The notes under the pieces are model-generated. The model was not told where the DNA came from. It searched no databases and saw nothing but the letters and a program-made list of their open reading frames with translations. Positions 3,414 through 64,000 of a DNA stretch of 64,000 nucleotides are shown here, piece by piece. The stretch is from a phage. The translations under genes and the position numbers were made by a program. The stretch lies in the sequence record OZ413489.1, one strand, 5' to 3'. The first letter of the stretch is position 1. Each line of letters begins with the position of its first letter.

Positions 3414-5485
3414 TGGCAACAGCTATTTTTAAACCTTACCGTGATTACTCTACAATGGCTGCACGGTTTCATTACCGCACAGTTCAGGATACTGCAGTTC
3501 CTGGTAGGGATTATAATCATGTTGAGGGTGATGTAACTATCCCAATTGGGGCAACCAGTATTGAGATCCCAGTGGAAATTGTTGACAAATTACCCAACAG
3601 GTTGCCAAGAAGCTTCTTTATGGAGTTTTCATCAAAATCTCAAGGGGTGATGATTGGAACACAAAGGGCGAAATGTACAATAGTTTCAGATGAGAATCTT
3701 GACAGGATATCTTGGGATACTGTCGAGGAGAGAATGTTTCACCCAAGATATTGGGTTACATCTACCCAGCAGACTGAAAGCACCTGTATTGTTGCAGATA
3801 ATAACTGTTGTATTAACCGTTTAGTGTCAAGAACATATGGAGGTATGGCTGGGTGCATTTGGGAAACAGTTGACAAGTATGACCATTTCGGTATTGGGTT
3901 TGATGATCATTATGAGATGAGAAATACCAAGCTTTGGTTCAGAATGTCAATAACCAACGCCAGCAACTTCTCCACTCCTGAAAAGATGATTATGACTGTA
4001 GACCTTGTTGATGGCACAATCATCTATGTTCCTTTAGCTCAATATGCTGTCAGCATCTCAGAGGATAAGAATGTTGCAGAAATTCATATTGATTTCGAGG
4101 ACTGCGTCGGGATGGACCAGAACAACAATATGATGGGTGTTGATCCTCGACAGGTGAGAAGGATTTTAATACCGCTTATGCCTAAAGATTGGGTAAGCAA
4201 TAGCACAAACCCAAGAACGGAAAATGTAGAGTGTGAGTTGCGCCTAGATCTGCTTCAGCCAGACACAGGCTGGAAAATGATGCAACTTAACAATATTCAG
4301 GTGAAAGAACACGACGTTGGGATCTGCACAGCATATGACGATATGTGGAACGTGTCTCCTTTAAGGGTGTTGAACAATATCAAGCGTCTGGGCTATACCG
4401 GAACCATAAACCATTATGTTGGTATGAGTCATTATTATGACTACACATGGTCAGGAACTCAATGGTCTATAAACAGAACAGGAGCGCTAAACGCTGCAGC
4501 TTATAAATGGCATGATGATTTTATGTACAATGCCAAACGACATAACTTCGACGTTATGCAATCTGTAAGTTTTGAGCTTTTCAGCGATGCCTGCCCGTTG
4601 GAATGGACCCAAAGAGACTGGAACGATAACTACGCTAAAACAGGGTATACACCTTGTAGCTACCTCCTGTCTCCAACCATTGAAGAGGGTATGAATTTCC
4701 TTACTGCAGTATTTAAGAATTTTGCATCAGCCGCTATGAGAAACAACCTGCCAGTGATTATGCAGGTTGGTGAACCGTGGTGGTGGTACAATACCGATAC
4801 TCGTAGACCTTGTATTTATGATTACCCTACAAAGCAGGCGTTTTATGATGAGACAGGTGAGTATGCATTAGATATTGGGACTATTGACGATCCTAAAACT
4901 GGCGGTGTTTACGACAAGTATGTAGCATTTTGTCGTGGTAAGCTTGGCGCTCGTATTGCGGCTATTTCAAAGGCAATAAAGGCACACGCTGCATCAGCTC
5001 AGATGACAGCTCTACTGTTTTTCCCAACCATTATGGAAACCGAGCTTACGCAAAAGCTTAACCTTGCTGACCAATATAAAAAGGAAGCAGGTGCTCTTGA
5101 TTTCTTCTGCACCGAGTGCTACGATTGGGTGATGCAGGGAGGTATTGAAAAGGCAAAAGAGTCTGTAAACATACCTATCGTTAAGTTAGGTTGGCAACCG
5201 TCTGAAATACAATACCTTGCAGGGTTCGTTCCTAGTAAAGAGCTTGCTCCGGTATATGGTTACGACCCAACCAGGAATTACCAAGAATTTTTATGGAGAT
5301 GTATTTGCGGAAACATGGCAACTATAGAGTATAGATATCCTGAGGTAAAACAGTATGTGTGGGCATACCCGCAAGTAATGTCTGACAGCATCACTGTTAC
5401 CGCTAGAGATTCTACCGTGCTTCATATGGGGCAGGTTGCTCTGAAAGGGTATGTAGAAGATGTTGTCCCGCCAGACTTCTCATAA
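3413..5485 (+). CDS. Tail fibre / baseplate structural protein
   Basis: 690 aa ORF, start overlaps upstream stop (ATGG); within tail module; no recognisable enzymatic motif. Confidence 0.55.
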   Translation: MATAIFKPYRDYSTMAARFHYRTVQDTAVPGRDYNHVEGDVTIPIGATSIEIPVEIVDKLPNRLPRSFFMEFSSKSQGVMIGTQRAKCTIVSDENLDRISWDTVEERMFHPRYWVTSTQQTESTCIVADNNCCINRLVSRTYGGMAGCIWETVDKYDHFGIGFDDHYEMRNTKLWFRMSITNASNFSTPEKMIMTVDLVDGTIIYVPLAQYAVSISEDKNVAEIHIDFEDCVGMDQNNNMMGVDPRQVRRILIPLMPKDWVSNSTNPRTENVECELRLDLLQPDTGWKMMQLNNIQVKEHDVGICTAYDDMWNVSPLRVLNNIKRLGYTGTINHYVGMSHYYDYTWSGTQWSINRTGALNAAAYKWHDDFMYNAKRHNFDVMQSVSFELFSDACPLEWTQRDWNDNYAKTGYTPCSYLLSPTIEEGMNFLTAVFKNFASAAMRNNLPVIMQVGEPWWWYNTDTRRPCIYDYPTKQAFYDETGEYALDIGTIDDPKTGGVYDKYVAFCRGKLGARIAAISKAIKAHAASAQMTALLFFPTIMETELTQKLNLADQYKKEAGALDFFCTECYDWVMQGGIEKAKESVNIPIVKLGWQPSEIQYLAGFVPSKELAPVYGYDPTRNYQEFLWRCICGNMATIEYRYPEVKQYVWAYPQVMSDSITVTARDSTVLHMGQVALKGYVEDVVPPDFS

Positions 5486-5497
5486 TCAGGAGATAAA

Positions 5498-6538
5498 ATG
5501 TCAAAACCTAGTTTTCCATTAGAGATTTGGGCAGAGGAGGATCAGGTTCTGCCTAACACCCACAGACAGAACAGGCTACGCCCGATTGATGATTTGTGGA
5601 GAAAAGGTTGGGATCTTGGTCAAAAGCCCTCATGTGAAGAACTTAACTATATTTTCAATATGCTCGGGACTTGGGCAAAATACATCGCTGACGAGCAGAT
5701 CCCCGCTCAAGAAGGCCGTTATCTGGTACGTGATAATAACTTGAGTGATCTTTTGAACATTCCTGTTGCCCGTAGAAACCTTGGGATTATTACTAAGGAA
5801 GAGGCAGACGCCAGGTATGTAAAAGTTACAGGTGATACAATGACAGGCCCATTGGGTTTGCAACGTATCAACTTTAAAGCTGCCGAGTCAGATAAGGCTT
5901 GGATAGAGACAACTATTGGCCCAGATAAGACAACTCTCGACTTTGGGTTAAGTGATAATACCGGGTCGTTTGATGATGGTGGTACATCTACAGTGGATGC
6001 GTTCCGTTGGAGATTCCAGCCAACTCAGCCGGATATTAATCCAGAGTTCACTTTGATGTACCTTAACGCGATCACGGCTAACCGTGCGCTGTTGAAAGTG
6101 GTAGGCAATGTTGAAGTTGTCGATAACATGAGGTGCAATAACCTTACTATCAGCAATACAGCGACATTCACCAACTGTAATGTGGCTAGTCAGTTGACGG
6201 CTGGGTCAGTGTATGTTAATGGTGGTGCAAGTTGTGACAGTATGGTTGTAAGAAGCCAGCACTGTGTTGTCGGTAACAGAAATGTGGTTCGCTCTGTGAA
6301 CGGAGTGACGGCTAACGGTAACGGTGATGTAACGATCACTATCCCGCAGACAGGTGTGCAAGACATCAGAATCGGTGCAAGACTTGTTGACGGCGTTTCC
6401 GAATCTCCAATTCGCAACGGCTACGTTGTCACAGGCTGGCATTTCGGTGACAAAAAAGAGATGCGTGGTTCAACCTACTGGGCAGGACCTTTACAAAAAC
6501 TTGTAAACGGTCAATGGATCACTGTTAATTATGCATAG
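5498..6538 (+). CDS. Tail fibre protein (receptor-binding candidate), paralogue 1
   Basis: 346 aa; homologous over its full length to 7553-8596; shared C-terminus QKLVNGQWITVNYA; GDTMTGPLGLQRI motif common in tail fibres. Confidence 0.7.
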   Translation: MSKPSFPLEIWAEEDQVLPNTHRQNRLRPIDDLWRKGWDLGQKPSCEELNYIFNMLGTWAKYIADEQIPAQEGRYLVRDNNLSDLLNIPVARRNLGIITKEEADARYVKVTGDTMTGPLGLQRINFKAAESDKAWIETTIGPDKTTLDFGLSDNTGSFDDGGTSTVDAFRWRFQPTQPDINPEFTLMYLNAITANRALLKVVGNVEVVDNMRCNNLTISNTATFTNCNVASQLTAGSVYVNGGASCDSMVVRSQHCVVGNRNVVRSVNGVTANGNGDVTITIPQTGVQDIRIGARLVDGVSESPIRNGYVVTGWHFGDKKEMRGSTYWAGPLQKLVNGQWITVNYA

Positions 6539-38279: not shown

Positions 38280-38651
38280 ATGTTAGTAAAAGGTACCCAC
38301 ACAGTCAAACAACGTATTGAAGTTGAGATTGATGATTGTGAGCTGAAGCATATTTTACGGTCATGCTCCAACGTTTTGCTCCTTAGTATTCTTCAGGAGC
38401 GAGCGGAGAACGAGTTCTTAAATGCATTGGCAGGCCGTCCCGGTGACTTCTGTGTGCGTAAGCGTGGTGACAACAAGTCGTGGTTGTGGGAGATCGATGC
38501 CGACTGGGATTACCACAAAAATGAGGGTATAGATGAGCCTATTCGTGAACTGACGGACAAAGAGATTCAGATGTACAATGAAGTTTGTCATTGGGCAACA
38601 CGCCAACAAATTTACCTAGACCCTGTGTGGCTGATTGAAAATAGTCGTTGA
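38280..38651 (+). CDS. Hypothetical protein
   Basis: Track ORF from 38253; ATG at 38280 after RBS agaggaggtagg. Confidence 0.5.
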   Translation: MLVKGTHTVKQRIEVEIDDCELKHILRSCSNVLLLSILQERAENEFLNALAGRPGDFCVRKRGDNKSWLWEIDADWDYHKNEGIDEPIRELTDKEIQMYNEVCHWATRQQIYLDPVWLIENSR

Positions 38652-38676
38652 CAAGAAGTAAGGCTAGATGTAAGAT
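38648..38676 (+). promoter_or_regulatory. sigma70-type promoter
   Basis: TTGACA-17 bp-TAAGAT upstream of 38728. Confidence 0.55.
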
Positions 38677-38727
38677 ACTCCCCACAAACAGAGTATTGAT
38701 TGTTAAATAATTAAGGAGACCTCTAAG

Positions 38728-38982
38728 ATGAAAATCATGTTGAAACCAGAATGCGTTGCAAACGACCGAGCTTTTAAAGATTGCACACTTGGCGCTACTT
38801 ATGAAGCAGAGTTTTGTGAGAACCCTTTGGTAAAAGCCCTTTTGGAAGAAGGGGCCCCTCTATCACAAGAAGAGCTTGATGAGCTGGAAAACTCAGCACA
38901 GTGCCTTACCTTTAAAGATGATGAAGGAGACTCTGTCTGGTGCACTGTTAATGAAGTAGTTTTTGTAAAACCTGAACATTAA
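38728..38982 (+). CDS. Small protein, KDD-G-x-W paralogue family
   Basis: 84 aa; RBS taaggagac; motif FKDDEGDSVWC. Confidence 0.5.
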   Translation: MKIMLKPECVANDRAFKDCTLGATYEAEFCENPLVKALLEEGAPLSQEELDELENSAQCLTFKDDEGDSVWCTVNEVVFVKPEH

Positions 38983-38985
38983 TAC

Positions 38986-39014
38986 TTGACAACAGTGATG
39001 GGGCCTAATATAAT
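38986..39014 (+). promoter_or_regulatory. sigma70-type promoter
   Basis: TTGACA-17 bp-TATAAT; falls inside the track ORF 38986-39306, which argues for a downstream start. Confidence 0.55.
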
Positions 39015-39045
39015 GGCCCTATCAAAACGAAAGGGGACCACAGCA

Positions 39046-39306
39046 ATGACCAAACAATATCAACGAATTAAAGCCAAGGTTAAGCCAGACTATCTGGAGA
39101 AAGACTCTGCTTTTCGGGACTGCACAGCCGACAAAGTTTACACAGGGGCTGTCCTGTTGAACGATAAACTTGAAGTAGATGTGCTGGGTAAAGAGGCCGT
39201 TATCGAGGATGACAACGGTGACTGGGTTTTCTGCACCACACGAGAGCTAGAAGTCTTAGAATATTTCGGTGAAATCTTCAACTCCTTAGACGACGAGGAA
39301 GCGTGA
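39046..39306 (+). CDS. Small protein, KDD-G-x-W paralogue family
   Basis: ATG at 39046 with RBS aaagggga; motif IEDDNGDWVFC; homologous to 38728-38982. Confidence 0.5.
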   Translation: MTKQYQRIKAKVKPDYLEKDSAFRDCTADKVYTGAVLLNDKLEVDVLGKEAVIEDDNGDWVFCTTRELEVLEYFGEIFNSLDDEEA

Positions 39307-48735: not shown

Positions 48736-49086
48736 ATGAATACTTCCATCACTATGACCGCCGAAGAAAAAGCCCTGCAGATCGCCGCTCTGAAAAAACA
48801 GATTGCAGAACTTGAAGACAAGATCGACAATTTTGAAATCGACGAAGACAAATACGACGATAAATATGATGAATGGTTGGACGAGATCTACGGCGAAATT
48901 ATGATCGGAAACATTTCTTTTCTTCCGTCGCGTATCCTCAAGGAGCTAGATCCTATCGCTTACCGCTGCGGATTTAGCGACTACATCGACAGCCTGGATA
49001 TTGAGGACGATGAAGAATACCAGGAATTGCAGACAGAGCTTGAAGAAGTGAAAGAAGAGCTTGCAGAACTGGAAGAAAACGAGTAA
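48736..49086 (+). CDS. Hypothetical acidic coiled-coil protein
   Basis: 116 aa; heptad-like N and C termini; very acidic. Confidence 0.5.
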   Translation: MNTSITMTAEEKALQIAALKKQIAELEDKIDNFEIDEDKYDDKYDEWLDEIYGEIMIGNISFLPSRILKELDPIAYRCGFSDYIDSLDIEDDEEYQELQTELEEVKEELAELEENE

Positions 49087-54251: not shown

Positions 54252-54524
54252 ATGTCAAACTGGATTAATCAAGAAGTCGAATCACGTTTTAATGCTATTT
54301 GGGATCTCATCGAAAAAGAAGACGGCACATCAAGCCCCTACCTCAACAATTTGGAATTCCATTTTGTGGAAGCGATGAACGCAGAACATGATCACGAAGG
54401 TGGCGCGGATGAGTTCGCTAAAGGTTATGGCTTTAACAATGCCAACGAAATGATCGAGGCGGTAGTACTCCAGGCTGAGGAAGATTATCAACTAAAAACG
54501 CTTGAATTCTGCCGCCGCAAGTAA
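54252..54524 (+). CDS. Hypothetical acidic protein
   Basis: 90 aa; RBS agagagaggaaaac. Confidence 0.5.
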   Translation: MSNWINQEVESRFNAIWDLIEKEDGTSSPYLNNLEFHFVEAMNAEHDHEGGADEFAKGYGFNNANEMIEAVVLQAEEDYQLKTLEFCRRK

Positions 54525-54530
54525 TAAGAT
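54502..54530 (+). promoter_or_regulatory. sigma70-type promoter
   Basis: TTGAAT-17 bp-TAAGAT at the end of the upstream gene; a 5'-UTR hairpin gggccaaaaggccc (about 54539-54552) follows. Confidence 0.45.
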
Positions 54531-54584
54531 AATGACACGGGCCAAAAGGCCCACTAATCAGAACCGCACAAAGAGGTAAACATC

Positions 54585-54848
54585 ATGAAACGTCTTGATC
54601 AGCTCAAATTAGTTCAATATATGGCTTATCGTGTTCTTGAAGTCCAGAAAGGTAGCAAAAAAGAGGTTTGCGAGAAAGCTTATAAGATCTTCACTCGCAA
54701 AAAAGATGACTGGATGCTACGCCAGACTAAAAAGGCTGACATCTTGGGGTACCTGGAAGAAGAGATCCGCCTTGAAGAGCAAGAAGAGATCCGCCGTAGT
54801 GAGGCAGATTATCAGGCAGCTTGGGAAAACTGGATGAGCAACAAATAA
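54585..54848 (+). CDS. Hypothetical protein
   Basis: 87 aa; RBS aaagaggtaaac; last plus-strand gene before the non-coding region. Confidence 0.5.
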   Translation: MKRLDQLKLVQYMAYRVLEVQKGSKKEVCEKAYKIFTRKKDDWMLRQTKKADILGYLEEEIRLEEQEEIRRSEADYQAAWENWMSNK

Positions 54849-54867
54849 TACAACAAGGTGCACGGTC

Positions 54868-54893
54868 AGGGGCTTAAAGCCCCTTTCTTTTTG
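54868..54893 (+). terminator. Rho-independent terminator
   Basis: aggggc-ttaa-agcccct + ttctttttgtct. Confidence 0.75.
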
Positions 54894-55770
54894 TCTCCTC
54901 TTTTCCTACCACAAATGGCCCCGCCTGGCAAATGGAATAATCAACAAGCCAGCAATTAACCCCACTGTACAAACATACATATAAAATAACTATTGCATAA
55001 TTTTTCATTGTGTGGTAGCAGTGCCATTTTTACACGTTTTTCCTTCCAAAATTGCACGTAATGCAGCATTTGCACAAAATTTAACCTGATGCATATCTTC
55101 AATAGCTTGTCAACAACTAAAAATCTTTATAAGTCATACACTTACATAACTACAAAAACGTTTTCTACGTGAAAAATCGAGTATAACTATAGCCGCCAGA
55201 TCTCAGAATTTACGTACGCTCGCCATTCTATAGCCTGCTAAGCATTTATTCCAACCATAGAATAACGGAATAGTCAATACCTGCATAAAATAATTATTCG
55301 TGTAAACTGCATAACATAAATCGGCCCAGGTGTCAACATTTTTCGTAAACAGTCTGGAATTGTCACGTTAGGTTACCATAAGCAGAGAAATCTTTAGTCG
55401 TCTAATGTTTACTGTACATTACTATACTGACTGGAATCATTAGATGACTAAGAGAAAGATAAGAAATAATTAATAATGTAATTATTTTACCTGTAACAAT
55501 AAGGCAACTATGCAAACGAATGGCATGGCGCGACGGAGTCGCGACATAATATAAAAGCAGTAACCATCACCCCCGTGATAGTTTGTCTGCAAACTATTAA
55601 TCAGATCATAGTTGCCTTGTATTTAGTTAATCATGACATGACAAGCAAGGCAACTATAGATCTGCTAATAGTTGCCCTGCTTTTATATTATGTCATGCTA
55701 ATTATAATCAGTGCGATTATTGTCATGTATAATTATTGTCATGCAAACGAATGGCATGGCTGATTATCGG

Positions 55771-55860
55771 TGTGTAAACAGTCAATCATGTAAATGGTTA
55801 GCATGTGAACAATCAGGAATGTAAACAATCCAGTGTGTAAACTAATAGGTGTGTAAAAGT
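55771..55860. repeat. TGTAAAC-type iteron cluster
   Basis: gtgtaaaca, atgtaaatg, atgtaaaca, gtgtaaact, gtgtaaaag within about 90 bp. Confidence 0.45.
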
Positions 55861-56001
55861 GTCATGTTGTGTCAGTTAGGTCACATTATGTCAGACAAGT
55901 TTTTCTCCTCTTTGTCAAGTGCTGCATGAAAAATTTACAAGCTTGTATGGTAGCATTTTTGCGGCCCTGTTTACATTCAGTAATGTATGTATAATCCTTG
56001 T

Positions 56002-56165
56002 TGTGTGGGCGTTTAGACGTCTAGACGGTTGGAAGTCCACAGGTCAATATCTAATCTATCGGCTGCTAACTATATCCCACACATGTGTGGGCGTTTAGAC
56101 GTCTAGACGGTTGGAAGTCCACAGGTCAATATCTAATCTATCGGCTGCTAACTATATCCCACACA
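56002..56165. repeat. Perfect tandem duplication, 2 x 82 bp
   Basis: The unit tgtgtgggcgtttagacgtctagacggttggaagtccacaggtcaatatctaatctatcggctgctaactatatcccaca occurs twice head-to-tail with no mismatch seen; each copy contains the palindrome TAGACGTCTA; the junction forms CCCACACATGTGTGGG. Confidence 0.8.
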
Positions 56166-57461
56166 AATAGTAAGAAATATGATTGTTATATGCGTAAACT
56201 GTAACTCATGTTATCAATCCCTGTATGGATCGCCAGTGGTGCGCATAATAGGTATTATGTTAAATTGCCCGTAATGATAACAGTTCTCACAATGATAGGT
56301 ATTCTCATTCATCCACACAAAATAGGTTGCAAATGTTGTGCCACTGTGTGAACGGCCTGGCCTATTAATTTCTCTCACTGCCTCGATATTTGAGAATTGT
56401 TATAAGAATGAGAAGTATTCCCATTCCGTCCGCCTGGCAGCACTCCTGTAGGTCCTGCAAGGACTCTAGCTGAAAGCTAGACCCTTCGGGCCTCCCTGTA
56501 GGTCAGGTCAAAATCGTGGTAGAATTGGGCCTGTTCAGATATTTCTGGCTGACTCTTCAGGTCTGTGTGGGAAAAGCCAACCTCTCCGGCGGGGCAGGGG
56601 GTCATGACGGGAAAATTGCAGGTCAATTAAAAAATTTACGTGGTGTATGAAGCGCTCTTCAGGTAAGGCATGTATTATGGGATGAAACCCTCTTCAGGCA
56701 ATGATATTTGTGGGTGTGATATTTGCTGGAAAGCCAGATATGACGGGACTCCCGGCGGGGATGGGGTAGTACAGACAGGGAAAATATGAGAATGTAGTTG
56801 GGGAAATTGATCAGACAGGTAGAGTATGGAATATGTTACAAGTATGTTAAATATGGAGGTTGAATATCTGTAGGATTTGTGTGTAAAATCAAAGACTTAA
56901 GGGGTGTTGTGGTATTTTCTATAAATAATTCAAGTTTAATAGGCAATATTTGTCTCTATCCGCTTTGTGTGGTAAACAGATTCAGATTAGATTGGTTTAC
57001 AAGTGTATACATAATATACAAATTAAAGATACAAGAAACCCCCCTCCCCCTTCGGCTACCATTCACCTTTTCCTCTGACTGGTACTTAAACACTTATTCA
57101 GACTCTTCAGGTTATCACCCATATATCATATGGCAGTGACTGGTGTCCTCCGGCCCCTCTTTCGTCACCCGTCCGCTTCGCCATGCTAATGCCATAGCCA
57201 ATGGTTCGGTTGTTCACTCTGTTCACTCAGGTGTATCTCCATACCCCTTCAAACCGAAGAGAACAGAAAACCCGAATTACTCGGTAAAAGAAAAGAGAAG
57301 AACTTAATTTTATCAGGATAGGCAAGAATGTCAAGGCATGACTGCTCACTAAACAAGCAAACAGTCATGTGTGGAAGGTAAGTGATTGTGGTGGTGGGAA
57401 ATTTAGTTGAAAGATGTGTTATAGGTGCTCCCAGCACTTTAGCCGGGTAGCTAATTGTGTG

Positions 57462-57743
57462 TCAGTCCAGTGGTTCATCACCTACTTCACTGAAATCAAT
57501 GTTCATGGTCTCCTCCCAACCATCAATCTCAGCACCAGAGTAGAGATCTTTAGGACTTACTCCCAAAGCATCAGCAACAGAGTCCATATTTAACACCTCT
57601 GGCAGGTATGATTCATCGAATTCAAGGTAAATCAGGCCACGAGTGTTGTCAGCTCCACCAAATATTTCTATCTTCATGAAATCTCCTCTGGGAATGAGAG
57701 TGTGAACAGGGTTTATACGTTCCAATGCGCTGGAATTATGCAC
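57462..57743 (-). CDS. Hypothetical acidic protein
   Basis: 93-aa track ORF; possible true start at the internal Met (MKIEIFGG). Confidence 0.45.
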   Translation of the reverse strand: MHNSSALERINPVHTLIPRGDFMKIEIFGGADNTRGLIYLEFDESYLPEVLNMDSVADALGVSPKDLYSGAEIDGWEETMNIDFSEVGDEPLD

Positions 57744-57797
57744 GTTTGCCTCTTCAGGCCATGCTTCAGCATGAGGAACCTGTGTGGGCTCGGTGCT

Positions 57798-58010
57798 TCA
57801 TAGTCTACCACCCCTGAACTCTTCGTGCTCAGGCATAATAGAGAACCAGATATCTACGATGTCTTCCCACGTCAGGTCATCAGCCTCAGGATCTACCTGG
57901 AGCGAAGATGAAGAATCTTCAGAATCGAAGTTTTCCTCTTGCACTGGCTCAGTCAAGGGACATATAGTCACTCCTTTGGATGTCTCTTCAGATGCATGTG
58001 TGTTTATCAT
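57798..58010 (-). CDS. Hypothetical acidic protein
   Basis: 70 aa; ATG overlaps the stop of the upstream micro-ORF. Confidence 0.45.
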   Translation of the reverse strand: MINTHASEETSKGVTICPLTEPVQEENFDSEDSSSSLQVDPEADDLTWEDIVDIWFSIMPEHEEFRGGRL

Positions 58011-58096
58011 GTTCCACCCGTGAGTATTCCGGCAACAGCTGCTATGGACGTAATGATCATCAGGATCACCACTAAAACTTCGGACAATGTTCTCAT
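58007..58096 (-). CDS. Small hydrophobic peptide (29 aa)
   Basis: Minus-strand ATG after RBS tggag; MRTLSEVLVVILMIITSIAAVAGILTGGT; sits downstream of the minus-strand promoter at 58129-58158. Confidence 0.4.
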   Translation of the reverse strand: MRTLSEVLVVILMIITSIAAVAGILTGGT

Positions 58097-58128
58097 TGTG
58101 TACTCCATATTCTACAAACTATGTGTGG

Positions 58129-58158
58129 ATACTATCACTGGATCGGTAATGTGTCAAC
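58129..58158 (-). promoter_or_regulatory. sigma70-type promoter (minus strand)
   Basis: Minus-strand reading TTGACA-17 bp-TAGTAT. Confidence 0.5.
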
Positions 58159-58312
58159 AGAAACGCCGCGAGGGTTTGGTTAAAATCCGAGCGTATGGTG
58201 ATTTGGGTCAAAACGGACGTGCGTTCTCGCTACGCTCGAAATATGGAGTTGTTTGTAGGGAGCTCTTAAACGCTCTGTAATGAAATTAACTACCCAAGGT
58301 ATGCAATCGTGC

Positions 58313-58346
58313 ACCAGACAAAGAAAAGGACGCCACAGAGCGTCCT
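58313..58346 (-). terminator. Rho-independent terminator (minus strand)
   Basis: Minus-strand hairpin ggacgctctgtggcgtcc followed by ttttctttgtct, downstream of the gene ending at 58371. Confidence 0.65.
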
Positions 58347-58370
58347 AGGTGTCTTAAATTTGATATTTTG

Positions 58371-58682
58371 CTATACCCACGAGGGCTTATCAAGGTTGGA
58401 GTAGCTGAAAGGTGTCAAAAGGTGACTGTCAAAATCTCTCAAACTATCCAAATCTTTTTCCTCGTCCTGACACCATCTGTGCCTACATTTGTTGTTGTAG
58501 TGCATGGAATGCATAGCGTTCTGCAACTTAACAGGCACAAGTGATTCAGGAGTAGATAGTATTGTTGGGTATGCCAGAACCACCTCAAACAGTGGAAACA
58601 CATCGAAACTAAAGTCTACCTCTGCAGAGGTTGATGGCATATAGGAGTATTTAGCCGCCTTTGTAGACATAATCCACCTCAC
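58371..58682 (-). CDS. Hypothetical protein
   Basis: 103 aa; start overlaps the upstream stop. Confidence 0.5.
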   Translation of the reverse strand: MRWIMSTKAAKYSYMPSTSAEVDFSFDVFPLFEVVLAYPTILSTPESLVPVKLQNAMHSMHYNNKCRHRWCQDEEKDLDSLRDFDSHLLTPFSYSNLDKPSWV

Positions 58683-59011
58683 ACAGGTTTGATAATACCT
58701 TCACCGAATAGCTCTTCGTATCTAATCTTGTCCGGATCCCACTCCTGTATAATTTCGAAGACAATATCCAACCCAGGAACAATCACTTCTCCAGTGTCAA
58801 GCTTAGCAAGAACAAAACCGGAAGGTTGAATGGTTTCCCAGTTACGGCGATCAGAATAAAATACTTCGAAAATATCACCAACCTCAATCCGTTTCTGTTG
58901 CTCAAGATGCTGAAGGTTCTCTTTCATACGGATGCAGCGTATTTTTCGTGCAGGCCATAGACCACCTGCATCACGTTCATTCAATTCTTTTACAGTGATC
59001 GGTATACCCAT
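58679..59011 (-). CDS. Hypothetical protein
   Basis: 110 aa; RBS gaaggagac. Confidence 0.5.
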   Translation of the reverse strand: MGIPITVKELNERDAGGLWPARKIRCIRMKENLQHLEQQKRIEVGDIFEVFYSDRRNWETIQPSGFVLAKLDTGEVIVPGLDIVFEIIQEWDPDKIRYEELFGEGIIKPV

Positions 59012-59023
59012 CTCAAGTCTCCT

Positions 59024-59056
59024 TCATGGATAGTAAAAAGAGGGGCCTAAGCCCCC
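59024..59056. terminator. Hairpin terminator (functional on minus strand, possibly bidirectional)
   Basis: agaggggcctaagcccccctct flanked by aaaa / ttt tracts; lies after the minus gene ending at 59067. Confidence 0.55.
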
Positions 59057-59066
59057 CTCTTTGTCA

Positions 59067-59372
59067 TTATTCTACAGAGCGTTTGAACAGAATGTCTGCC
59101 TCAGACATGTGCTCAACCTCTTCTTCGATTTTAGCTCGACGTTTTTCAGCCTCATATCGAATATCGAACTCGGTAGCCACCAGAGATTTGATGAATTTAG
59201 GAGAATACAGATGATCCTGCTTCTCAACAAGAATGATATCCTTGATGGCATCTTTCAAATCTTTAATCTGAAGCTGGAGTTCCACCAGTTCTTCAATTGT
59301 TTTGCGAAGGCGATCACGTTCTGCAGTGTCAGAAGGAAGAGAGGTGAACAGTTCAACTTTAGATTTAGCCAT
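59067..59372 (-). CDS. Hypothetical coiled-coil protein
   Basis: 101 aa; RBS taaggagac; charged heptad-like sequence. Confidence 0.5.
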   Translation of the reverse strand: MAKSKVELFTSLPSDTAERDRLRKTIEELVELQLQIKDLKDAIKDIILVEKQDHLYSPKFIKSLVATEFDIRYEAEKRRAKIEEEVEHMSEADILFKRSVE

Positions 59373-59400
59373 AGTAAGAGTCTCCTTATGTTGTTTTAAA

Positions 59401-59652
59401 TTAACGTTCTACAAAAATACCGTTCAGTTCAATAACCAGGAATTTCTGGTCTTCACTATCGTCTCGTGCCAGCACCTCACAGACGTATCGGTCATCCCCA
59501 TCATCATCGCAGTCAAATACAAGACTGAGGACTTTATCATGGTAAACCTTCGCCACTACCGCCTCGTAAGTATTGCCGATTGTGAATCCAAGATAATCTC
59601 CGATGCATTTGACAACAACATGGTCTCCAGCATTTAAGTCAATCTTCGTCAT
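59401..59652 (-). CDS. Hypothetical protein
   Basis: Track ORF to 59718; RBS aaggag precedes the internal Met (MTKIDLNAGDHVV) at about 59652. Confidence 0.45.
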   Translation of the reverse strand: MTKIDLNAGDHVVVKCIGDYLGFTIGNTYEAVVAKVYHDKVLSLVFDCDDDGDDRYVCEVLARDDSEDQKFLVIELNGIFVER

Positions 59653-59779
59653 TACTGCGCTCCTTGGGTAATAATACTGTATGTAAAACTTTAACCAGAG
59701 ATGTGAATAACGCCCCAAAACACACCGATAGCGCTAAAACAGACAAGGCCATCATTAAAGCTTCAGTAAAATCCGTCAT
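59642..59779 (-). CDS. Small membrane peptide (45 aa)
   Basis: Minus-strand ATG after RBS gaggtgagga; TM helix ALMMALSVLALSVCFGALF; overlaps the next start. Confidence 0.4.
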
Positions 59780-59807
59780 TCCTCACCTCTTGTTAGTCAC
59801 TATACTA

Positions 59808-60071
59808 TCATTTATCCTTGTCGTCAAGAACTTTTTTAAATCTTTCAGGGATATCTCCCGTTCTTAGATAGTTCATGACCTCGCAAGGTTCCCACTTGAA
59901 TTTCTTACAGAGCAGGGCGGCTGAGATTGTTTCATTGCGAAAAGAAAGGATATTAATATCCCACTCTGAGAACCCCAACTTCCGAAGGGTAGCTACAGAA
60001 ATCCTCACCGCAACCCAGCAGCAAAAACATGCAACAAACGCCACTGCTACAACCCACATCAGGATGTTCAT
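59808..60071 (-). CDS. Membrane protein
   Basis: 87 aa; N-terminal TM helix ILMWVVAVAFVACFCCWVAV. Confidence 0.5.
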   Translation of the reverse strand: MNILMWVVAVAFVACFCCWVAVRISVATLRKLGFSEWDINILSFRNETISAALLCKKFKWEPCEVMNYLRTGDIPERFKKVLDDKDK

Positions 60072-60160
60072 ATAAGCACCTTACTGAAATACAAGACACA
60101 GTGTTAAGGTTACTGACCAGCAAATAATTAACAGTGCCGTTGCAACCTTGGCAAGATTTA

Positions 60161-60448
60161 TCATAGTGCCTCTAAGATTTCATATCCTTCGGGTCGGAAT
60201 ACAAGCCACTCCGTGGCTCCGTTTGGTCGATACGCTTTATACAGAACAACCTGATCTCGGCACATGCACATGGCTACATAGTTTTCATCCACACCTGCAG
60301 CCTGCATTGCATCTTCTTCTCCGGCAACCGCTTTGCTTACAACTTCCTTGGTAGGCAGGTGTGCGATCAGCTCGTCACCATCATTAATTCCAAAATGGCT
60401 GAGTTCTCCATTGGTATCTTTGATCTTAATCTTAACCAGATCTTTCAT
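60161..60448 (-). CDS. Hypothetical protein
   Basis: 95 aa; start overlaps the upstream stop. Confidence 0.5.
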   Translation of the reverse strand: MKDLVKIKIKDTNGELSHFGINDGDELIAHLPTKEVVSKAVAGEEDAMQAAGVDENYVAMCMCRDQVVLYKAYRPNGATEWLVFRPEGYEILEAL

Positions 60449-60777
60449 TAGTCTTTCTCCAGGTTCAAAGGTCCTAAGATTTCATATGCCAGATTAGAAG
60501 TTACAAGAGGGTCTTCTGCGTCTTTAGTATTATACCACCCGTGAATAACCAGAGTCCCACTTTGTTTCATGTCCAACTGTAACTCTTCTGCCGTTTCCTC
60601 ATCCAGCTCCAAGATTTCCATAAGGTATTTGATGTTAGGGAGGTATGCAGCTGTTACAGTCCCCTCTACCAGACCTTCAGGCCAACCTACATCTGGATGA
60701 CAAGTAGGAACCAGGTTGGTCAGCTTAATGGTGTACGCTTTTTCTGCACGAGCCTTCAGTAACGGGTCAATCTTCAT
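60448..60777 (-). CDS. Hypothetical acidic protein
   Basis: 109 aa; ATGA coupling. Confidence 0.5.
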   Translation of the reverse strand: MKIDPLLKARAEKAYTIKLTNLVPTCHPDVGWPEGLVEGTVTAAYLPNIKYLMEILELDEETAEELQLDMKQSGTLVIHGWYNTKDAEDPLVTSNLAYEILGPLNLEKD

Positions 60778-61127
60778 TATTCGTCCTCCTCTTCGGTACC
60801 TGCTTCCAGTAATAAGTTAAGAATATCTTCTGCACAAGGCTCATAGAACTCTTGGCCTTCATTATCGATGATTTTATAGTCATCTCCACGAATAATCAGG
60901 GGATCACTCTCAAAATTATCGAGACCTTTAACAACGACAACACGATCGATTGCCATCATTGTAAGAACTTTATCGACATCTTCCTCTGCTACACCATACT
61001 GCAGCAGAATGTCTTTGGTAGGAGGAACAGCATCCACCACAACGCCGTTACCAAAACCTTCTGGAAGTTTAGCTAAAATATCTTCCGGAACCACATTCAC
61101 ATCAAAACCGGTAATTTCTACTTTCAT
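60777..61127 (-). CDS. Small acidic protein, tandem paralogue family
   Basis: 116 aa; begins MKVEITGF; Asp/Glu-rich; resembles 61128-61388 and 62552-62821 in start and composition. Confidence 0.5.
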   Translation of the reverse strand: MKVEITGFDVNVVPEDILAKLPEGFGNGVVVDAVPPTKDILLQYGVAEEDVDKVLTMMAIDRVVVVKGLDNFESDPLIIRGDDYKIIDNEGQEFYEPCAEDILNLLLEAGTEEEDE

Positions 61128-61388
61128 TTACAGCACCTCTTCGTCAACTACTTCATAAAAATGGCCTGGGATTGCAATAGCGTTCTCACCTTCACCTACA
61201 AACACAGTTCCGTCAAGAATCAACATCATAAGAATTTCTGTAATATCCTCTTCCGGAACGTTGCCAAAACCTTTAATCAGCTCGTAGGTTGGAATATTTA
61301 CCTCTAAGATGTCACCATCTTTAGAACGGAAATCAACACCGTCCTGAATCTCTGCCGTTTCAAGGTTTTTCAATTTAATCTTCATCAA
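61128..61388 (-). CDS. Small acidic protein, tandem paralogue family
   Basis: 86 aa; begins MMKIKLKNLETAEI. Confidence 0.5.
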   Translation of the reverse strand: MMKIKLKNLETAEIQDGVDFRSKDGDILEVNIPTYELIKGFGNVPEEDITEILMMLILDGTVFVGEGENAIAIPGHFYEVVDEEVL

Positions 61389-61464
61389 TCGGTCTCCTGT
61401 CTTGTTAAGATGAAGGTATTATTTCACACAGGGTTGGCGTTGTCAACACCTGTGTGCAAGAAAA

Positions 61465-61860
61465 TTACTGAAACAGTGCGGATAAATTACCTTCTGGTGG
61501 GAACTTATCTGCCAAAAACGGTGTTAGCACAGTAGCCCTCTGAAGATCTGGGGTCCACTCGTTGTTCAGAACATCCCAGTAGTACGCAATGTTGCTGTGT
61601 GGGTGCCGCATTACGAACTTTTTCCCTTCGTAGTCATCTGAAACCTCTACAGAAGAAATAACAACAGAATCTTCAAGGGTTTCTTCATAGAAAGATCCAC
61701 CTTCAAATTTCCAACGAGATGCAAGAGCCCCTGCCTTGAACGCTGCAGATAACGGACTGTCGGCAAGAACATACATTTCTTGCACTCTGTCGCTGCGATC
61801 TTTGCTTCTTACGTTGTATACAGTATCTGAGCTATACTCAACACGGTATAGGCTTACCAT
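61465..61860 (-). CDS. Hypothetical protein (paralogue of 63667-64000)
   Basis: 131 aa; shares KKFVMRHPHSNIAYYWDVLNNEWTP with KVFVIVHPDSRVKHYWNARTKTWTP of the gene at 63667. Confidence 0.5.
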   Translation of the reverse strand: MVSLYRVEYSSDTVYNVRSKDRSDRVQEMYVLADSPLSAAFKAGALASRWKFEGGSFYEETLEDSVVISSVEVSDDYEGKKFVMRHPHSNIAYYWDVLNNEWTPDLQRATVLTPFLADKFPPEGNLSALFQ

Positions 61861-62192
61861 TACCGAACCTCCTCAATAACTTCCACATCTGAACCTACCA
61901 CAAATGCAAAAGGACAGGTTTCATGAAAGATATCCGGATCGCCGCCAAGCTTGCTAACAATTTCTCCACCACTAATAAACACAAGCTCACCGATATTCAT
62001 CAGATTGCTGAAATAGTACCCATAATGATTAAAGAATGCAGCAGGGTCAGGTAGACTAGTAGCCTCAAGCACTACATCGGTTGAGGTTACTTTCTTATCA
62101 TAACCTCTCGCCTTTTGAGATGCAAGATCTGCAGAATCCTCAGGCGACCGGAGATGCACAGGAATTGTTTCACCAATAAAGCGTACTTTCAT
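61860..62192 (-). CDS. Hypothetical protein
   Basis: Track ORF to 62219 overlaps the upstream gene by 22 nt; the internal Met (MKVRFIGE) at about 62192 is immediately after the upstream stop. Confidence 0.45.
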   Translation of the reverse strand: MKVRFIGETIPVHLRSPEDSADLASQKARGYDKKVTSTDVVLEATSLPDPAAFFNHYGYYFSNLMNIGELVFISGGEIVSKLGGDPDIFHETCPFAFVVGSDVEVIEEVR

Positions 62193-62196
62193 ATTA

Positions 62197-62460
62197 TCAC
62201 CCAACAACCATAGCTTCAAAAGGAGTCATGAACGAATAAACGGCATCATCATCTGCTTCAGGGAATGCTCCCAAAGACTTCATATCTGAGCCCTTGACAA
62301 ATACAAGGTTTTGATCAAAGGCTTCTTGGGGGTCAATCCGATACATATTTCGTAAAATATCGCTTACCTCCTCATCAAGAGGTGAGTATGCTGTGCACGT
62401 TTTTCCGATCAAGCTTTGAGAATCAGGGTATCCACCTGAAGTTTTAAAATAAACAATCAT
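62197..62460 (-). CDS. Hypothetical protein
   Basis: 87 aa. Confidence 0.45.
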   Translation of the reverse strand: MIVYFKTSGGYPDSQSLIGKTCTAYSPLDEEVSDILRNMYRIDPQEAFDQNLVFVKGSDMKSLGAFPEADDDAVYSFMTPFEAMVVG

Positions 62461-62551
62461 ATAGTATCACCTCTGGTAAGAGATTGGGACTCCTTTCCCA
62501 CAAATAATTACAAATCTTCCTTAGCGAGGAAGTATGCTAATCCAAGCAGGA

Positions 62552-62821
62552 TTATTCCTCTACAATCTCATACACATCAGGAGTTACAATCAACTCTTCT
62601 CCGTTACCCGGTGCAACAAACACCACCAAACCTTCAGGTGTGTGCTTTTTAGCCATCTCGATAACATCTTCTCGCAGAGCTGGCTCCATCAGATCAAAAC
62701 CTTCACCTAGGGCATCACGAACCACCTTCATATAGTCCACTGGTTGTGCTTCAACAATCATGCCTTCAACCAGTCCACAATTTTTGTCTGCCAGCTCAGT
62801 TTGGAATAATTTAATTTTCAT
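62552..62821 (-). CDS. Small acidic protein, tandem paralogue family
   Basis: 89 aa; begins MKIKLFQTELADK. Confidence 0.5.
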   Translation of the reverse strand: MKIKLFQTELADKNCGLVEGMIVEAQPVDYMKVVRDALGEGFDLMEPALREDVIEMAKKHTPEGLVVFVAPGNGEELIVTPDVYEIVEE

Positions 62822-62958
62822 TTAGAGGTCTCCTCAATTATTTGATATTAATAGCCGTAACCTAACACATTAACTACAACTGCGATTGCAAACATAATTT
62901 CAAAGCATGCAATCTCTACATTTGGGACTAATTTCTTAATCACACCCATTGTAGCACC

Positions 62959-63276
62959 TCATTCTCCAAAGTCAATCTTTACTTTGCCTTTCCCCTTACC
63001 TTTCTTTCCACCGCATTTAGCCAGCTGACGTGCTGCAACATCTACCATACGGTCAGTTGCCTCGTAAGCATCACTGCCTTTAGCCTTGGCAATAACTTCT
63101 TTTCCAGAATTGTCAAAAATGAACGCCATAACTTCCTGGTGATCATTTTCAACTTTTACACTCACACGTGCATAGTTGGCAGAGGGATGCAAACGCTCCA
63201 ACTTAGACATTTTGTGGGAAATGAAAGACACCATACCTTCAGTGATTTCTACGTTGCCAGTGATTTCAATTTGCAT
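62959..63276 (-). CDS. hpf: Ribosome hibernation promoting factor / RaiA-like (short HPF family)
   Basis: 105 aa; aligns along its length with short HPF/YfiA proteins (MQIEITGNVEITEG ... VSVKVE ... AKAKGSDAYEATDRMVDVAARQLAK); Lys/Gly-rich tail. Confidence 0.7.
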   Translation of the reverse strand: MQIEITGNVEITEGMVSFISHKMSKLERLHPSANYARVSVKVENDHQEVMAFIFDNSGKEVIAKAKGSDAYEATDRMVDVAARQLAKCGGKKGKGKGKVKIDFGE

Positions 63277-63323
63277 AACGTGTTCCTTTTAAAGAAGAGG
63301 GAACCGAACCCTCTTTGAAAACA

Positions 63324-63353
63324 ATGATACTAAATCTGAAGCGTTGTGTCAAC
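63324..63353 (-). promoter_or_regulatory. sigma70-type promoter for the HPF-like gene
   Basis: Minus-strand reading TTGACA-17 bp-TATCAT, then 5'-UTR hairpin agagggttcggttccctct and RBS aaaaggaac. Confidence 0.55.
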
Positions 63354-63358
63354 AGTTT

Positions 63359-63649
63359 TTACAGATTGTTGTCGATAGTTTTTAAAATATCCACAGCAAG
63401 ATCTGCCATTTTTCGAACATACTCTGCAAACTCAACAGGATCCTTGATCAAAGAATTCACAGGGTCGTACCCTAGAGCGTTCAAAATGGCTGCAGCATCT
63501 ACAACCTTCTCATCATTTGCGAAGATCTCTCCATCAAACTTGTAGGTCCATTTTGAGTCAATCTTGGCAGGGAATGATTGGTCAACGCTTGTTACACCAT
63601 CCTTTTTAAACGCTCCGGTGTTATCAGTGTCTAGAACTAAATCCATCAT
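63359..63649 (-). CDS. Hypothetical protein
   Basis: 96 aa. Confidence 0.5.
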   Translation of the reverse strand: MMDLVLDTDNTGAFKKDGVTSVDQSFPAKIDSKWTYKFDGEIFANDEKVVDAAAILNALGYDPVNSLIKDPVEFAEYVRKMADLAVDILKTIDNNL

Positions 63650-63666
63650 GTTAGTACCTCACCGTT

Positions 63667-64000
63667 TCAGTTTAGCTTTTCTTCAACAACCCCATAGCTC
63701 GGGACAGAGTCAAGAGCTTTCTGGTTTAAAAGTGGTGTAGCAGAATCTGCAAACGGTGTCCAAGTTTTTGTTCTGGCGTTCCAGTAATGCTTCACTCTGG
63801 AATCTGGATGCACTATAACAAAAACTTTTTCACTTGTCAACACATTAATTTCTTCCACACCCCTGCTGATAATTTCTCCGTCATATCCCCCGGTCTGGTA
63901 TCCTTCGTACCAGGTTCTTGCATAGGCATAGCCAGCCTGCCAGCATGCAGCCTCCTCCGAGGTGGAGACTACGTAGAAGTCTTTCTCAAATTCTGGGATA
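63667..64000 (-). CDS. Hypothetical protein, 5' end outside window (paralogue of 61465-61860)
   Basis: Minus-strand frame stays open to the window edge beyond the GTG the track used at 63858; conserved HYWNARTKTWTP segment. Confidence 0.45.
   Translation of the reverse strand, partial: IPEFEKDFYVVSTSEEAACWQAGYAYARTWYEGYQTGGYDGEIISRGVEEINVLTSEKVFVIVHPDSRVKHYWNARTKTWTPFADSATPLLNQKALDSVPSYGVVEEKLN

Follow-up and report, generated by a model that had tools for sequence, protein, structure and literature searches.

Three lineage-restricted families of small genes arising from old duplications at one genome end of an rV5-like Escherichia phage

rV5-like phages belong to the most commonly isolated myoviruses of Escherichia coli and are used in phage-therapy cocktails. 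For the small acidic proteins treated below, obvious points of comparison are T7 Ocr (gp0.3) and ArdA, which are likewise small, very acidic and expressed from host-type promoters. When the rV5 genome was first analyzed, about 70% of the gene products were ORFans, and the words paralog and duplication are not used in that genome paper (PMC3606486). Here, a 64,000-nucleotide (nt) stretch of phage DNA (record OZ413489.1, referred to as the window) was studied, whose positions 57400-64000 hold a block of small genes and share 98.7% identity with the Vequintavirus JeffSchatz (Bas55; L001), an Escherichia phage. About 120 rV5-like records match this region with at least 90% identity and 117 of the 120 carry at least 80% of it. 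The block corresponds to the rV5 open reading frames (ORFs) 142-163, which are the final genes of the proposed transcription unit 82-163 (PMC3606486 and the rV5 record), and all of its genes are annotated as 'hypothetical' except for a ribosome hibernation factor at 62959-63276.

Nine of these 'hypothetical' ORFs reduce to three long-retained families, designated A, B and C. We are close to certain that the duplicated small genes at this genome end make up three families that are old and restricted to the lineage. Their recognition is new, but they are of a familiar kind, namely multigene families of small accessory proteins specific to a phage lineage. Family A comprises five proteins of 85 to 116 amino acids (aa) with isoelectric points (pI) of 4.05-4.68 and net charges between -7 and -21. 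The genes and their control elements are:

61128-61385, minus strand: family A paralog (rV5 ORF150), 85 aa, pI 4.08, net charge -13; first gene of a four-gene operon
60777-61127, minus strand: family A paralog (rV5 ORF151), 116 aa, pI 4.05, net charge -21; extra C-terminal helix and acidic tail; the modelled protein
60448-60777, minus strand: family A paralog (rV5 ORF152), 109 aa; missed by an earlier note on this DNA
60161-60448, minus strand: family A paralog (rV5 ORF153/154), 95 aa; likewise missed by the earlier note
62552-62821, minus strand: family A paralog (rV5 ORF146), 89 aa; downstream of the phage hibernation factor gene, followed by a terminator-like hairpin
61418-61446, minus strand: sigma70-type promoter P150, TTGACA-17-AATAAT with extended -10 TG, before the four-gene family A operon
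63324-63352, minus strand: sigma70-type promoter P144, 11/12 matches, before the hibernation factor gene, a 33-codon ORF and 62552-62821
62516-62532, minus strand: terminator-like hairpin right after the stop of 62552-62821

The earlier note had described three acidic paralogs (60777-61127, 61128-61388 and 62552-62821) and a possible fourth (57462-57743), all rich in Asp and Glu and with the common start MK(I/V)(K/E)(L/I). The minus-strand ORFs themselves are real, whereas two of the starts were wrong: the start of 61128-61388 was corrected to the ATG at 61385 (MKIKL), 7-8 nt past an AGGAG ribosome-binding site, and that of 57462-57743 to 57677 (MKIEIF), as in the JeffSchatz annotation and, at the equivalent place, in the ortholog of L002, a Logan assembly contig from a divergent rV5-like phage. 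The acidity was borne out, the proteins named there having pI values of 4.05-4.34, 21-25% Asp+Glu and net charges of -11 to -21. The start motif, in contrast, is non-specific and no marker of relatedness. MK starts 17 of the 35 genes of the extended block, MK(I/V) 11 and the full motif 6 of them, and these six genes span at least four unrelated families; some of them belong to family C, and one is an unrelated gene of 132 aa.

Since all-against-all BLASTP gave only weak links among the family A genes, four independent tests of their kinship were run. Smith-Waterman scores compared with composition-preserving shuffles yielded p = 2e-5 (60777/61128), 3e-4 (60161/60777), 6.5e-4 (61128/62552) and 2e-3 (60448/60777), and nine of the ten pairs within the family ranked among the top 24 of 105 pairs. 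Iterative searches with hidden Markov models (HMMs) recovered the same five genes from each of the five seeds. For hhalign, ortholog-group profiles were built with divergent orthologs from a profile search of 1.84 billion proteins and from contig L002; the link probabilities within the family ranged from 62 to 96.5%, with 96.5% for 60777 and 61128 (E = 9e-10, 84 columns), 93.9% for 61128 and 62552 (E = 1.6e-7), 92.2% for 60777 and 60448, and 70% for 62552 and 60161. Finally, in leave-one-group-out HMM searches each left-out gene was the top match of 380 six-frame ORFs of the window (E between 8e-11 and 8e-6), the next-best window ORF reaching only E >= 0.5. From these four tests it follows that family A has five members, the three genes named earlier, which are true distant paralogs according to shuffles, hhalign and leave-one-out HMM, plus 60161-60448 and 60448-60777.

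The similarity might instead be an artefact of acidic composition and the common MK start between unrelated genes. Pairwise identities within family A are just 20-30%, PHROGs gives each gene a family of its own (12359, 12155, 12457, 12794 and 11868, all of unknown function), and the N-terminal motif is indeed non-specific. We assign this explanation a practically negligible probability, because the shuffle controls keep composition, the acidic ORFs at 57462, 57798, 48736 and 38728 are left unmatched by the family A HMM, and the alignments are full-length with conserved G, PT, E-E/D and Y-E-I-V motifs in the same order. The complete order is MK-strand, G, PT, E-E/D helix, G-hydrophobic strand and Y-E-I/V-V-D/E. 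The window proteins of all three families match their PHROG profiles end to end (E = 1e-56 to 1e-76); the kinship of the five family A genes is absent from PHROGs, which keeps them as five separate families. In the old rV5 record DQ832317 (L009) the ortholog of 60161-60448 (4280-4575) is split into ORF153 and ORF154 by two 1-nt insertions, which is probably a sequencing error and not a pseudogene.

The proposed fourth paralog turned out to be unrelated to family A. For 57462-57677 hhalign gave about 1% to every family A group, the gene recruited nothing as HMM seed, and the family A HMM had no match to it at E < 0.01. Its best shuffle p value was 0.013, obtained only against 60448, and it shares merely the non-specific start MKIEI. 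Another acidic gene, 38728-38982 (84 aa), was rejected as a family A member as well (hhalign 0.5%).

57462-57677, minus strand: acidic gene (rV5 ORF163, phrog_12108), 71 aa; a real conserved gene outside family A

The arrangement of the family A genes is compact. In 54500-64000, the top seven sigma70-like matches, each agreeing in at least 10 of 12 positions, all lie on the minus strand, and both P144 and P150 coincide with promoters annotated in the rV5 record. P150 is followed by the AGGAG site and by four family A genes (61385 to 60161) with the junctions TAAATG, TAATG and TAATG. Judged by these junctions, the four genes are almost certainly an operon with coupled translation, driven by a sigma70 promoter of host type; together with promoter 61446-61418 they represent a single unit for deletion or expression. 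The fifth member, 62552-62821, is under P144, after the hibernation factor gene and the 33-codon ORF.

Among cultured phages these families were found in Vequintavirus only. An exhaustive profile search of 1.84 billion representative proteins returned 15 matches, 14 of which were small family A proteins; a word-index search of 5.8 billion sequences gave only close orthologs (at least 86% identity), and the loci were not found in an IMG/VR scan (query P0018). Contig L002 shows the same gene order with one-to-one syntenic orthologs of all five family A genes at 28-60% identity; it lacks the second family B gene (B2) and carries an extra 98-aa gene. In a third lineage, represented by the contigs L005 and L007 (120-133 kilobases, kb), four contiguous family A genes and one family B gene are present and an ortholog of 60448 is missing. 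The rV5-like metagenomic contig L003 carries a family A gene at 6001-6273 within the DNA-replication module. The syntenic site of the window, 38651-39303, holds the unrelated acidic gene 38728-38982 mentioned above; small acidic genes thus seem to be swapped at this locus. The ratio of non-synonymous to synonymous substitution (dN/dS) against phage B9-1 was 0.00-0.17 across all 15 of 15 block genes and 0.02-0.17 for family A. The family A duplications are older than the split from the L002-type relative, given that the orthologs are only 28-60% identical. From ortholog distribution and dN/dS together it follows that the duplications are old and that every copy is kept under purifying selection; all genes of families A, B and C are bona fide protein-coding genes under such selection.

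The coupled tandem paralogs might alternatively be subunits of one hetero-oligomer, synthesized in equimolar amounts for a single joint function. Three consecutive stop/start overlaps or abutments between 61385 and 60161 and an array order kept in L002 and L005/L007 would suit such an assembly. Nevertheless, we regard it as improbable, since tight packing and stop/start overlap are general for rV5 ORFs, which are 'most closely packed or overlapping' (PMC3606486), L005/L007 do without the 60448 ortholog, L003 has a lone family A gene at a different locus (within 12 kb of contig), and 62552 is driven by another promoter.

Two further families are interspersed with family A:

61465-61860, minus strand: family B paralog 1 (rV5 ORF149), 131 aa, phrog_7379
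63667-64000, minus strand: family B paralog 2 (rV5 ORF142), cut by the window edge, 123 aa in JeffSchatz (L001, 12271-12642), phrog_7379
61860-62192, minus strand: family C paralog (rV5 ORF148), 110 aa
62197-62460, minus strand: family C paralog (rV5 ORF147), 87 aa

The family B pair had been noticed earlier for a shared block of 25 residues, and its homology extends well past this block. The two proteins are 28-30% identical over about 110 columns with 22 invariant positions; BLASTP aligned 88 residues at E = 6e-9 and hhalign 110 columns at 97.3%, and phrog_7379 is matched by both genes (E = 5e-66 and 2e-70). A search of PDB sequences with the family B profile returned noise only, and the AlphaFold model, calculated from three sequences, was unusably poor with a predicted local distance difference test score (pLDDT) of 51.6. 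Family C was overlooked by the earlier note. It has five members in Vequintavirus, namely the two in the window and three in L001 (12682-12936, 12926-13150 and 16585-16818), with an MKVK start and a (D/E)VE(I/V)VE end; the PHROG families are 13661 and 13920 (unknown function). Families A and C have in common an MK(V/I)K strand and an end of the form (D/E)VE(I/V)VE, and a comparable acidic insert occurs in 62197-62460. A single superfamily of A and C, suggestive by eye, lacks statistical support: hhalign of family A versus family C gave 11.9% (E = 0.0025) in an alignment limited to the N-terminal 28 columns, and all group-level A-C comparisons were at or below 3%.

In order to describe the fold of family A, the protein encoded by 60777-61127 was modelled with AlphaFold2 from the alignment of the five paralogs (mean pLDDT 77.6, predicted template modelling (TM) score 0.62). 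The model contains five short strands and two helical elements: a hairpin at residues 38-60, inserted after strand 2 and before strand 3, and an extra C-terminal helix. Family A is accordingly predicted to adopt a five-stranded, weakly SH3-like beta-barrel with an acidic helical hairpin. SH3-like and KOW barrels such as OapB, ribosomal protein uL24, FeoA and eukaryotic SH3 domains have five short strands in the same order; the family A model differs from them by the additional acidic helical hairpin of 25 residues between strands 2 and 3. The structural matches to SH3/KOW-like proteins are weak (50-64 residues superposed), so that homology is not established, and Foldseek of the model against PDB gave E >= 0.88 at best. 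A 16-sequence family A profile searched against PDB sequences reached E = 1.5 at best. Against BFVD the sole significant Foldseek match was A0A6M5CA15 of Vibrio phage Vc1, an uncharacterized 86-aa protein with a predicted structure (E = 9e-5, probability 1.00, TM 0.81 normalized to the target). Its sequence identity to family A is 20%, and no sequence-level link between the two was found.

Among the conserved columns of family A, hydrophobic residues, Gly, Pro-Thr and one Tyr predominate, beside about seven acidic columns. The hydrophobic, G, PT and Y positions look like the fold scaffold. Outside this scaffold the paralogs are only 20-30% identical, yet each paralog is conserved among its orthologs. 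From this pattern of scaffold and divergence, the small size, the missing matches to catalytic families and the host-type promoters we infer that the family A proteins may be diversified stoichiometric binders of host proteins, for which, taken as a binding-inhibitor mechanism by itself, we see somewhat less than an even chance. The overall explanation, consisting of families, operon, fold and host-protein binders, is given a probability of roughly 0.5. The proteins would be soluble and non-enzymatic, would be made by unmodified host RNA polymerase and would bind host proteins stoichiometrically, serving host takeover or counter-defence. Each paralog would address a different target on one shared scaffold, which is plausible because the non-scaffold sequence has diverged. 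The negative charge, being conserved, would suggest basic partner surfaces and not a classical blockade of restriction enzymes as by Ocr.

Several observations weigh against host-protein binding. Gene-wide dN/dS bears no sign of an arms race, which is less expected of counter-defence proteins. 'Early' timing can be suggested from the promoter consensus only, and E. coli-like promoters are spread over the whole rV5 genome (PMC3606486). The coupling of four paralogs could equally mean mutual assembly rather than separate host targets. Furthermore, no functional work on these genes was found in the literature on anti-defence, escapers and Vequintavirus transcriptomes. At present, the locus has the status of an ordinary, uncharacterized accessory-gene cluster; should the paralogs indeed bind separate host targets, they would amount to a compact set of new small inhibitors.

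The acidity of the proteins had led the earlier note to consider them as candidate DNA mimics, i.e. proteins occupying the DNA-binding surfaces of restriction enzymes, RecBCD, H-NS/HU or SMC-type complexes. In favor of nucleic-acid mimicry, 15 of 15 family A members over four lineages are acidic (pI 4.05-5.04), in about seven alignment columns at least 70% of the members have an acidic residue, several members have acidic C-terminal tails, and small size is combined with host-type promoters. With 116 aa and a net charge of -21, the product of 60777-61127 resembles T7 Ocr in length and charge. The proteins share small size and negative charge with known mimics and, in the sequence and fold searches, showed no kinship to mimics such as Ocr, ArdA, Arn, UGI, Gp5.9 or Gam. 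No likeness to solved DNA mimics was detected in sequence or structure (Pfam, PDB profile and Foldseek), and the predicted beta-barrel with its helical insert is unlike Ocr or ArdA. For family A no significant match was obtained in Pfam, NCBIfam and PADLOC, and the matches in PHROGs were to families of unknown function only. Moreover, the block as a whole is acidic (median pI 4.5 with 76% of the proteins below pI 5, compared with a median pI of 5.3 in the rest of the window), so that charge is non-discriminating, and the most acidic small ORF of the window (net charge -27) lies elsewhere, at 48736-49086. Thus, the proposal finds no support beyond composition, and we consider DNA mimicry by the acidic paralogs doubtful. 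Mimicry aimed at some basic target other than restriction enzymes appears about equally doubtful. An anti-restriction role of the Ocr or ArdA type is disfavored because Vequintavirinae have been reported as 'exceptionally susceptible' to restriction-modification (RM) systems, seemingly without 'any effective protection' (BASEL, PMC8594841). Searches for DNA mimics should consequently take into account that acidity and MK start are block-wide features and no family markers, and that this phage group is RM-sensitive. The ORF at 48736-49086 (plus strand, 116 aa, 31.9% Asp+Glu, phrog_9294 of unknown function) would, by composition alone, be a better DNA-mimic candidate than any gene of the block.

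For one member, 60448-60777 (rV5 gp152), an association with the virion, packaged and possibly ejected into the cell, has to be weighed, since Table S3 of the rV5 paper labels gp152 as 'structural protein (MS evidence)', MS denoting mass spectrometry (PMC3606486). This detection consists of two single-spectrum semi-tryptic peptides with XCorr values of 1.8-1.9 and 12.8% coverage, compared with 2030 spectra for the major capsid protein (PMC3606486). In addition, the gene lies inside a sigma70-driven operon of small non-structural genes, and the other paralogs carry no detection label in that table. The label, with its two weak spectra, was judged unreliable, and a virion-associated gp152 is very improbable.

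Going beyond the binding of host proteins in general, family A might represent an unrecognized structural class of inhibitors, acidic SH3-like barrels with a helical hairpin that mimic nucleic acids or bind basic surfaces. The five paralogs, having diverged long ago, would each be directed against a different nucleic-acid-binding protein or immune sensor of the host, and 62552-62821 may join the co-transcribed hibernation factor in acting on the translation apparatus. We hold this extension to be speculative and unlikely.

The neighboring genes of the block were inspected as well.

62959-63276, minus strand: phage ribosome hibernation factor (S30AE/HPF-like), amid the paralogs, with its own sigma70-type promoter

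The adjacency of this gene and the following family A gene 62552-62821 is kept in L002. The most conserved gene of the block is 59067-59372 (minus strand) with 86% aa identity to L002, 74% to L005 and a dN/dS of 0.01; its best description comes from a match to the 'transcriptional regulator' family phrog_639 (E = 1e-21), and a strong terminator-like hairpin, bidirectional in kind, lies behind the gene at 59037-59062. At 57798-58010 (minus strand) lies a 70-aa ORF with 25.7% Asp+Glu and a net charge of -15 (phrog_16356), which is annotated in JeffSchatz. No gene is called at the matching place of L002, which makes it less certain than for the neighbors that this ORF is a gene. Past the last gene of the block, a sigma70-like promoter at 57307-57334 (minus strand, TTGACA-16-TAAAAT, 11/12, TG) is aimed into an ORF-free region.

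This ORF-free stretch of 2.5 kb (54900-57460) separates convergent gene blocks, and its equivalent in rV5 is marked merely as a 'non-coding' box (PMC3606486). DNA identity to L002 is 86.6% over 1022 nt at 54866-55857, 81.6% at 56159-56446 and 87.4% at 57202-57382, whereas the flanking proteins show 28-65% aa identity to L002, far below the DNA conservation of the stretch. Rfam gave nothing at E <= 0.1 on 54500-64000, and a tRNA was not found anywhere in the window. The stretch contains a perfect 82-nt tandem duplication (56002-56083 and 56084-56165) with the palindrome CGTTTAGACGTCTAGACG in each copy, a 20-nt direct repeat at 55510 and 55741, and an 18-nt perfect inverted repeat (55543-55560 and 55677-55694). 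It may be a candidate for a non-coding RNA, a replication origin or a regulatory region.

Over the block, 18 'Campylobacter phage' records (MG0656xx), which give Campylobacter jejuni as host, share 97-98% identity with rV5-like phages of E. coli, and the names or hosts of these records look doubtful.

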